This document shows, in pieces, positions 11,596 through 12,034 of a DNA stretch of 64,000 nt; the stretch's first letter is position 1, and each line of letters opens with the position of its first letter. Below the pieces are notes generated by a model that saw only the letters and a list, made by a program, of their open reading frames with translations, ran no database searches and was not told the origin of the DNA. A program made the position numbers and the translations under genes. Origin of the DNA: an uncultured Acidobacteriota bacterium (GTDB lineage: Bacteria; Acidobacteriota; Thermoanaerobaculia; UBA5066; Gp7-AA6); contig CAWFIK010000001.1 of assembly GCA_963815865.1 (NCBI GenBank), positions 14,493 through 78,492 on the forward strand. The letters are read 5' to 3'.

Positions 11596-12034
11596 TAGTG
11601 GGTCAGTTTACTTGTGGCTTCCAATCCGCCCCGGCGTCGGGCCCGCCTCCCTCCGTCGGCACGCGACGGCAGGCCGTGATGAGAGAACCGGCCGTCGCTC
11701 TAACGCGAAAGCACAGTTATAGAGAGGCAATTCGGGATTCGTGGTGGTGTGCTTTCGCTCACGGCGCTCCTCCGGGAGGCGGGCCCGCCGCCGGGGCTCC
11801 ACGGTGACGTTAAGCCGGACTGCGAGCCCCGGAGACGGCGGCGTTCCCGTACGGGGTGATGGGTGACGAGCATGGAACGCCACCGCCGGCATCACGGTGA
11901 GACTGCGAGGAACCCTCAGCGCCCGCCGGTTCTCACCGACACGGCCTGCGGGCGCGTGCCCCGTAGGGAACGCTGCCGGCTCCGGGGCGTCCTTTCCGCC
12001 TCGATCGGCTCGATGTGCAAAGTGACCCACTACT
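11596..12034. mobile_element. 439-bp non-coding foldback (MITE-like) element
   Basis: Termini (AG)TAGTGGGTCAGTTTAC / GCAAAGTGACCCACTA(CT) are inverted. It is flanked by identical 17-nt GAGAGTCGAGAGTCGAG (11579-11595 and 12035-12051). The left third (11626-11700) is about 70% identical to the reverse complement of the right third (11920-12010). Long internal stems are present. There is no convincing ORF. Confidence 0.6.

Follow-up and report, generated by a model that had tools for sequence, protein, structure and literature searches.

The question raised by this locus is what kind of DNA occupies the spacer between the genes of a radical SAM/SPASM-domain protein and an alpha/beta-hydrolase in a 64-kb stretch of DNA (the window, meaning the whole stretch analysed) from a lineage of the class Thermoanaerobaculia. 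The spacer holds a strongly self-pairing segment that splits an older hairpin in two, and the initial annotation offered two readings of it: a mobile element of the MITE or foldback type that used a repeat as its target, or a large structured RNA in the 5' region of the radical-SAM gene. We examined the ends, the fold and the insertion site of the segment, its presence in related genomes and soil metagenomes, and the way in which its copies vary.

Extent, ends and fold of the element

A non-coding segment of 439 bp had been placed at 11596-12034. It is present and it is non-coding, but comparison with the family described below extends it to 440 bp, from 11595 to 12034, with GTAG...CTAC and one further base as its termini (Table 1). 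The family profile recovers the window element with an nhmmer E value of 1e-113, and its sense orientation is that of the window minus strand, 5' [A]GTAGTGGGTCAC ... CTGACCCACTAC 3'. The inverted termini are there as annotated, with 16 nt at 94% complementarity (11594-11609 with 12019-12034), and so are the long stems, which we found at 11628-11651 with 11774-11797 (24 nt, 96%), at 11813-11848 with 11966-12001 (36 nt, 78%) and between GCGAAAGCACA and TGTGCTTTCGC (11 nt, 100%). The "mirror" pairing between the left and right halves was recovered as well, at 11658-11678/11940-11960 and 11683-11699/11918-11934. Folding of the 439 nt gave -246.4 kcal/mol for the plus strand and -245.0 kcal/mol for the minus strand (z = -6.65 and -6.86, respectively), and none of 100 shuffled sequences was equally stable. 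The predicted architecture is not a simple foldback: two hairpin domains stand side by side and are closed by a terminal stem. Pairing along the whole length as one foldback is an alternative, because both hairpins share the base stem GCCCCGG.../...CCGGGGC.

The absence of a protein-like ORF held up, since the ORFs inside the element have no Pfam family; moreover, copies of the element differ by indels of 1-2 nt and the ATG of a 57-aa ORF is not conserved. Two longer ORFs, at 11608-12216 (minus strand, 202 aa, no Pfam match) and 10440-11807 (plus strand, 455 aa), cross the element or run antisense to the radical-SAM gene, and they look like high-GC artefacts open to mis-annotation by gene callers. 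No second copy of the element was found within the 64-kb window. Elsewhere in the window, the 23S rRNA gene (422-4304) measures 3883 nt against the 2925 nt of the model and holds a group I intron (2427-2641; Rfam RF00028, 50.5 bits), which is followed by a 162-aa ORF (2813-3301) with the LAGLIDADG-type motif GFVDGEGCF, probably a homing endonuclease.

Table 1. Features of the element, its insertion site and its neighbourhood. Positions refer to the window unless another contig is named.
Feature	Position	Strand	Remarks
Whole element	11595-12034	-	440 bp; ends from alignment to L076, L128 and L182
Left terminal inverted repeat	11595-11609		GTAGTGGGTCAGTTT on plus strand
Right terminal inverted repeat	12019-12034		AAAGTGACCCACTAC plus one extra T on plus strand
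5' hairpin domain of core	11826-11988	-	base stem GCCCCGGAGCCGG... with ...CCGTCTCCGGGGC
3' hairpin domain of core	11628-11797	-	most conserved part of the family; contains GTGCCGACG...CCCGACGCCGGGGCGG
Target-site duplication, left copy	11586-11594		GAGAGTCGA
Target-site duplication, right copy	12035-12043		GAGAGTCGA
Interrupted heptad hairpin (insertion site)	11575-12088
Hairpin left arm, split	11575-11594 + 12035-12051
Hairpin loop	12052-12060
Hairpin right arm	12061-12088
Other hairpins with period-7/8 arms	4365-4398, 15960-16062, 29205-29293, 41086-41196, 42627-42699, 45294-45320, 53347-53433, 63374-63448
Radical SAM/SPASM-domain protein gene	10428-11543	-	downstream neighbour; PF04055, PF13186
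Alpha/beta-hydrolase gene	12098-12883	-	upstream neighbour; PF12697, PF00561
GATGCGATAATCG(N6)GTG motif	11541-11561	-	downstream of element
Probable -10 box	11550-11555		radical-SAM gene
GTG start	11541-11543		radical-SAM gene
Element in L006	9520-9945
Element in L007	1340-1515
Element in L182	2447-2896

Insertion site and target duplication

The arms of the interrupted hairpin consist of 7-nt tandem repeats, and the element sits within one of them. The sequence GAGAGTCGAGAGTCGAG stands exact at both flanks (11579-11595 and 12035-12051), where chance would supply 0.09 matches with 2 mismatches permitted. What had been annotated as a 17-nt duplication is therefore real as an exact repeat, but as a measure of the target duplication it was over-read. 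Because the target is itself a 7-nt repeat, duplications of 2, 9 or 16 nt all give the identical sequence, and 9 nt is the best fit because a copy on another contig (L076) carries an exact 9-nt duplication. Judged from the sequence, the repeat in the window is best read as a likely target duplication of about 9 bp, inflated by the heptad periodicity. Excision in silico of the element together with one 9-nt copy restored a symmetric hairpin with four heptads per arm.

Hairpins with period-7/8 arms are common in the intergenic DNA of the window. Their repeat unit varies by site (AGTCGAG, ATCGGGTG, AGTTTTC, AGTTGTG and others), and they look like a genome-wide family set by periodicity and not by sequence. 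Since such hairpins are common in the window, landing in one of them needs no special link, and no heptad hairpin is present at the other copies with readable ends (L076, L128, L182 and L006). The link of the element to the hairpin family is incidental, and the earlier proposal that it connects these hairpins to DNA rearrangement is weak, as these four copies lie outside them.

The locus in related genomes

A protein-guided scan with the radical-SAM protein yielded 68 loci, all of them in metagenome-assembled genomes (MAGs) labelled Acidobacteriota or Thermoanaerobaculia. Empty sites, which the initial annotation had proposed to look for, were found: the closest syntenic relatives, L001 (radical-SAM protein 94% identical) and L004, L003/L024 and L005 (87-79%), are element-free, and L002 carries a heptad hairpin in the spacer with the element absent. 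The order in the closest relatives is the hydrolase stop, a spacer of 70-100 nt and the GATGCGATAATCG(N6)GTG motif. Among the 68 loci, a homologue of the element was present only in L006 and, as a variant, in L007, in each case just upstream of the gene; both come from the same MAG and their radical-SAM protein is 76% identical. The copy in L007, on the second contig of that MAG, is an internal-deletion derivative of the L006 copy, with about 235 nt gone and the outer stem kept. In addition, the syntenic contig L182 (hydrolase 73% and radical-SAM protein 89% identical) has in its spacer a window-like element, inverted relative to the one in the window and with a 9-nt duplication of its own. 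There the hydrolase ORF is extended and stops at the TAG of the GTAG tip of the element (2457-2461), and in L006 the upstream ORF finds a TGA stop in what is apparently the decayed end of the element (9510-9519). Both insertions appear to have replaced the native gene ends.

Ahead of the radical-SAM gene, L001-L006, L009, L011, L067 and L182 have all kept the motif, with or without the element. It reads GATG(C/A)GATAATCG and lies 6-7 nt before the GTG or ATG start of the gene; in the window, a GATAAT box stands 7 nt ahead of the start codon. A consensus scan found no full sigma-70 site. The position and conservation of the GATAAT box suggest that it may be the promoter of a leaderless or near-leaderless radical-SAM mRNA, and with the box as promoter the element would lie upstream of the promoter and outside the 5' UTR.

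These observations bear directly on whether the element might be a cis-acting leader (a riboswitch-like RNA) or an invertible promoter switch controlling the radical-SAM gene. Its distance of about 50 nt from the radical-SAM start and the homologous elements in the same spacer of L006/L007 and L182 would agree with such a role, as would the inverted copy in L182, which is what an invertible switch would leave, but the element is upstream of both the -10-like box and the start codon, which element-free relatives have unchanged, and the three insertions differ in their duplications and junctions. Furthermore, nearly all copies of the family described below stand beside unrelated genes, many of them between convergent genes, a promoter consensus inside the element was not found and Rfam gave no match. 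The inverted L182 copy and the location of the probable promoter, on the downstream side of the element, rule out a leader function, and the whole reading, switch included, is largely refuted and in our judgement highly improbable. The structured RNA that had been suggested for the 5' region of the radical-SAM gene falls on the same points, namely the box downstream, the inversion in L182, the mixed orientation of copies and the lack of an Rfam match.

The three insertions (window, L006/L007 and L182) all lie within about 100 nt upstream of the radical-SAM promoter region, and their differing junctions and flanking duplications mark them as independent insertions, not as inversions of a single element. 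No other copies of the family were found in 1.09 Mb of related genome loci, and by a rough estimate the chance of three insertions in one spacer is below about 1%. This suggests that the spacer is a hot spot, through target preference, or that selection is involved, and it offers a concrete case for the study of target choice or of selection on radical-SAM expression.

The family in soil metagenomes

The longest block common to the copies in the window, L006 and L007, a conserved block of 25 nt (GTGCCGACG N5-14 CCCGACGCCGGGGCGG), served as the search pattern. It occurs on at least 120 soil-metagenome contigs, so that the further copies anticipated by the initial annotation do exist. Profile searches placed the family, among the matches listed, at 132 places with 113 distinct sequences. 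The two-hairpin core measures 360-381 nt across the family and the full element 440-470 bp. Among the matches listed, a window-like subfamily has 11 members, the best of which is 83% identical to the window, and a larger subfamily of 38 members has a different 5' domain. Matches of "half size" in nhmmer were at one stage taken for single-domain elements, but they are full-length and belong to the subfamily with the divergent 5' domain.

The family is intergenic, with only 4 of the 113 copies listed overlapping a predicted gene. With respect to the upstream gene, 39 of the copies listed have the same and 27 the opposite orientation, and with respect to the downstream gene 42 and 54, respectively. 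Gene 3' ends adjoin copies somewhat more often (93 vs 69 among the matches listed), convergent gene pairs flank many copies, and many copies are positioned at contig ends. Ten contigs hold two copies each, and since these are only 75-89% identical to one another there is no sign of a recent burst. No recurrent neighbour gene, transposase or other, was found next to the copies listed. In one contig (L087), a copy lies 84 nt from a tmRNA gene (58-418 and 502-890; Rfam RF00023, 193.7 bits), and tmRNA genes are a classic landing zone for mobile DNA. In L154 (about 2100-2170), L158 and L070 the base of the 5' domain encloses an extra small hairpin of about 55 nt (TTAGCGCCGGCGAACCCGGCGCTGCCTACTGCC...), perhaps a further short repeat that inserted there.

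Rfam searches at gathering and permissive thresholds gave no match to the family: up to E = 10 the region in the window returned a chance miRNA match only, and ten family loci searched up to E = 1 returned nothing belonging to it, so that the scan for a known RNA family ended without a hit. The conserved block is absent from the viral contigs searched and the family from the phage collection, and blastn found no match to the element in plasmids. Searching the genome and metagenome collections for exact copies of both tips, correctly spaced, gave no match either, the pattern being too strict. The family is an uncatalogued mobile repeat of soil Acidobacteriota that is non-coding, self-pairing and about 440 bp long.

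Ends and duplications of the subfamilies

Copies of the window-like subfamily end in [A/C]GTAGTGGGTCA...TGACCCACTAC. The 11-nt tip GTAGTGGGTCA stands at copy ends in L076, L091, L113, L154, L165, L171, L175 and L185. In L076 the flanks are the exact 9-nt direct repeat AGATTGCCG, at the same offsets as in the window; in L128 the duplication GCCCCCG(G)TC is found on both sides, 9 nt with one indel; the L182 flanks CCAACGGCT and CCAATGGTT match at 7 of 9 positions; and in L006 a 10-nt repeat, GGCCATCGCC, lies outside the decayed ends. In the largest subfamily the inverted repeats are about 30 nt long (CTAG|GTGTCAATTCTCAAnACGTTGTTCCC) and flanked by CTAG or TA, with no 9-nt repeat at its ends, and L121 differs from both in its end, GCCGCGTAGCGATTGAAA... 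Terminal motifs were seen nowhere but beside cores in 1.8 Mb of loci, so the ends belong to the element and not to the target DNA. We also weighed the possibility of a core that inserts by itself into loops of existing hairpins, the tails being target sequence, and rejected it, as tail motifs were never seen without a core.

In L076 (1203-1240, minus strand) a mini-hairpin lies by the 3' tip, in which a degenerate second tip faces the real one; its sequence, GTGGTGAGTCA-ATTGAAAC-TGACCCACTAC, resembles a GTAG-headed REP. The ends thus described are also those on which a REP- or REPIN-like reading would build, in which a REP-associated tyrosine (HUH) transposase moves the element in the form of folded single-stranded DNA and recognises the tetranucleotide GTAG at its tips. 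Both ends of the window subfamily start with GTAG in inverted orientation, the entire element is a giant hairpin on either strand, and the mini-hairpin of two tip-like sequences in L076 fits as well. Single-strand transposition of the HUH/Y1 type is, however, not expected to give direct repeats of about 9 nt, which flank several copies; in addition, the element is ten times the size of a REP, its tip is not followed by a local palindrome of its own, and no tyrosine (HUH) transposase gene was found next to copies. We regard this mode of movement as improbable, although palindromic repeats headed by GTAG occur widely among prokaryotes and Acidobacteria are known to have tyrosine transposases of the IS200/IS605 type (PMC3733652).

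Constraint on the core

Subfamilies with different ends and different duplications have the same core sequence blocks and the same architecture. Conservation of the 3' domain is partly imposed by the search pattern. In the 5' domain, the part that the pattern does not constrain, variation in paired versus unpaired columns was 0.052 vs 0.165 and 0.074 vs 0.257 (p about 1e-11), the stems being about three times more conserved than the loops. Pairs changed on both sides numbered 8 and 10, for instance in the 5' domain at alignment columns 39-71, 41-69 and 21-158, against 3.7-3.8 in shuffles, none of which (0 of 500) reached the observed value; in slid controls the number did not exceed 7 and 5, and the covariation scores were lower. 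One helix varies in sequence between copies, with eight variants or more, and nearly every variant still pairs. Most helices are invariant, so that the independent covariation events are few. Among the "unpaired" columns, 69 of 204 and 43 of 230 are at least 95% conserved. This pattern of conservation suggests constraint on both structure and sequence.

Neither strand stands out in these comparisons. Antisense alignments fold similarly (-129.6 vs -141.8 and -114.2 vs -111.3 kcal/mol), and for pairs predicted on both strands the ratios of G-U to A-C were 17:13 and 10:9, without strand asymmetry. An excess of G-U over A-C (43:10 and 220:16) had pointed to an RNA from the minus strand; it was gone when the count was limited to both-strand pairs, and it is explained by the prediction method and by the search pattern, which fixes one strand. 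A hammerhead-like GAUGAG...CGAA was likewise rejected, having no stem II and no Rfam match.

On these data the core could be read as a structured nucleic acid of a new class, either a non-coding RNA or single-stranded DNA, that has a function and is carried on or mobilised with inverted-repeat ends; the window copy would then be a gene for it. The constancy of core blocks and architecture behind different ends speaks for it, and so do the threefold conservation of paired columns in the 5' domain, the two-sided changes beyond those in shuffles, the helix that keeps pairing through its variants, the nearly invariant "unpaired" columns and the fact that copies within one genome are old, at 75-89% identity, yet structured. 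The lack of strand asymmetry weighs against an RNA, however, as do the mostly invariant helices with their few independent covariation events, the share of the 3'-domain conservation that the search pattern imposed, the absence of a conserved neighbour gene or orientation, and the failure to find a promoter or terminator consensus. Moreover, arm-to-arm correction in quasi-palindromes could maintain pairing without any RNA function, and such correction, or a mobilising protein that binds the core, could account for what is seen. We consider an RNA or DNA gene of this kind rather unlikely. That the two-hairpin core of 360-380 nt is a new functional structured nucleic acid (RNA or single-stranded DNA), long kept, present in many copies per genome and provided with interchangeable transposon ends, is a minority possibility that we hold tentatively; if it is true, the repeated arrival of the element upstream of the radical-SAM gene would reflect targeting or selection and not chance.

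Mode of mobility and significance

The segment is probably one copy of a non-autonomous, MITE-like DNA transposon, which is the best reading given the inverted ends, the direct repeats of fixed length at several copies, the element-free sites in close relatives, the lack of coding capacity and the many copies dispersed over metagenome contigs. The suggestion of a MITE or foldback element stands in its first part, since the same features mark the segment as mobile, but the two-domain architecture does not agree with a simple foldback. In the MITE-like course of events, a transposase supplied in trans, presumably of the DDE type, would have recognised the GTAGTGGGTCA tips, and the 440-bp element would have inserted into one arm of the existing intergenic heptad hairpin in the spacer between the hydrolase and radical-SAM genes. 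Repair of the staggered cut would then have left a 9-bp duplication, which would appear as 16-17 nt because the target repeats every 7 nt. We searched 1.8 Mb of loci for the cognate transposase proposed by the initial annotation and found none with the same termini.

Some features count against a plain MITE. The stems are conserved, each old copy folds well and the unpaired columns are nearly invariant, and folding conserved in old copies counts against plain parasitic decay. In addition, the largest subfamily has different ends and no 9-bp duplication, the 64-kb window shows a single copy, 1.09 Mb of related loci show no others, and copies that share a contig are only 75-89% identical. The core of the MITE-like transposon would accordingly be kept by constraint on its pairing and on some sequence blocks. 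Most likely it would act either as a nucleic acid structure formed on read-through transcription from one side or the other, or as a binding scaffold for mobilisation; by analogy with what has been proposed for other bacterial MITEs, a transcribed-through core might stabilise mRNA ends or serve as an insulator.

The family matters for practical reasons as well. Assemblies break at its copies, false ORFs arise from it, among them the 202-aa one in the window, and it can replace gene ends, as where the upstream ORF stops inside the element in L182 and apparently in L006. Furthermore, it is an example of how MITE-like elements in bacteria can contain a core that is both large and under conservation.

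Comparison with known systems

The HEARO or omega RNA of IscB-TnpB (RF02033) resembles the family in its length of several hundred nucleotides, its conserved structure, its intergenic position and perhaps its many copies per genome. The family differs from it in having no Rfam match at E up to 1-10, no nuclease or transposase ORF found beside its copies and no strand asymmetry, and in carrying inverted-repeat ends and target duplications.

The IS5 family of DDE transposons includes the IS903 group, with a 9-bp duplication, and the IS5 group, with a 4-bp CTAG/YTAR duplication, and the duplications of about 9 bp and CTAG in our family recall these two best-known subgroups as generally described. 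The tips GTAG... and CTAGGTGTCAA... bear no known resemblance to the IS5 and IS903 ends, and we know of no cognate IS for the family.

With REP sequences and REPINs, which go with RAYT transposases, the element has in common the inverted GTAG at its tips, the capacity to form hairpins and the intergenic, dispersed occurrence (PMC3733652). REPs measure 20-40 nt and REPINs about 100 nt, both without target duplication, whereas the element has 440 bp and duplications of about 9 bp, and it lacks the local palindrome that follows each GTAG in a REP.

In general design the family resembles the hairpin MITEs, such as ERIC/IRU and YPAL of enterobacteria, Correia/NEMIS of Neisseria, RUP and Nezha, which are likewise non-coding, dispersed and intergenic, have terminal inverted repeats and robust hairpins, and lie in either orientation to genes. 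For ERIC, long-term conservation has been reported. When transcribed through, the hairpins of these elements can stabilise or destabilise neighbouring mRNAs (PMC3733652). Bacterial MITEs are usually quoted at 70-300 bp (PMC3733652), and at 440-470 bp the present elements are 3-4 times larger; they differ further in having two conserved hairpin domains side by side in place of one foldback, a core found with three or more types of end and with two types of duplication (about 9 bp; CTAG/TA), and a host among uncultured soil Acidobacteriota. We place the element among the bacterial MITEs, as a new variant that is large and conserves its structure, from a soil lineage without cultured members.
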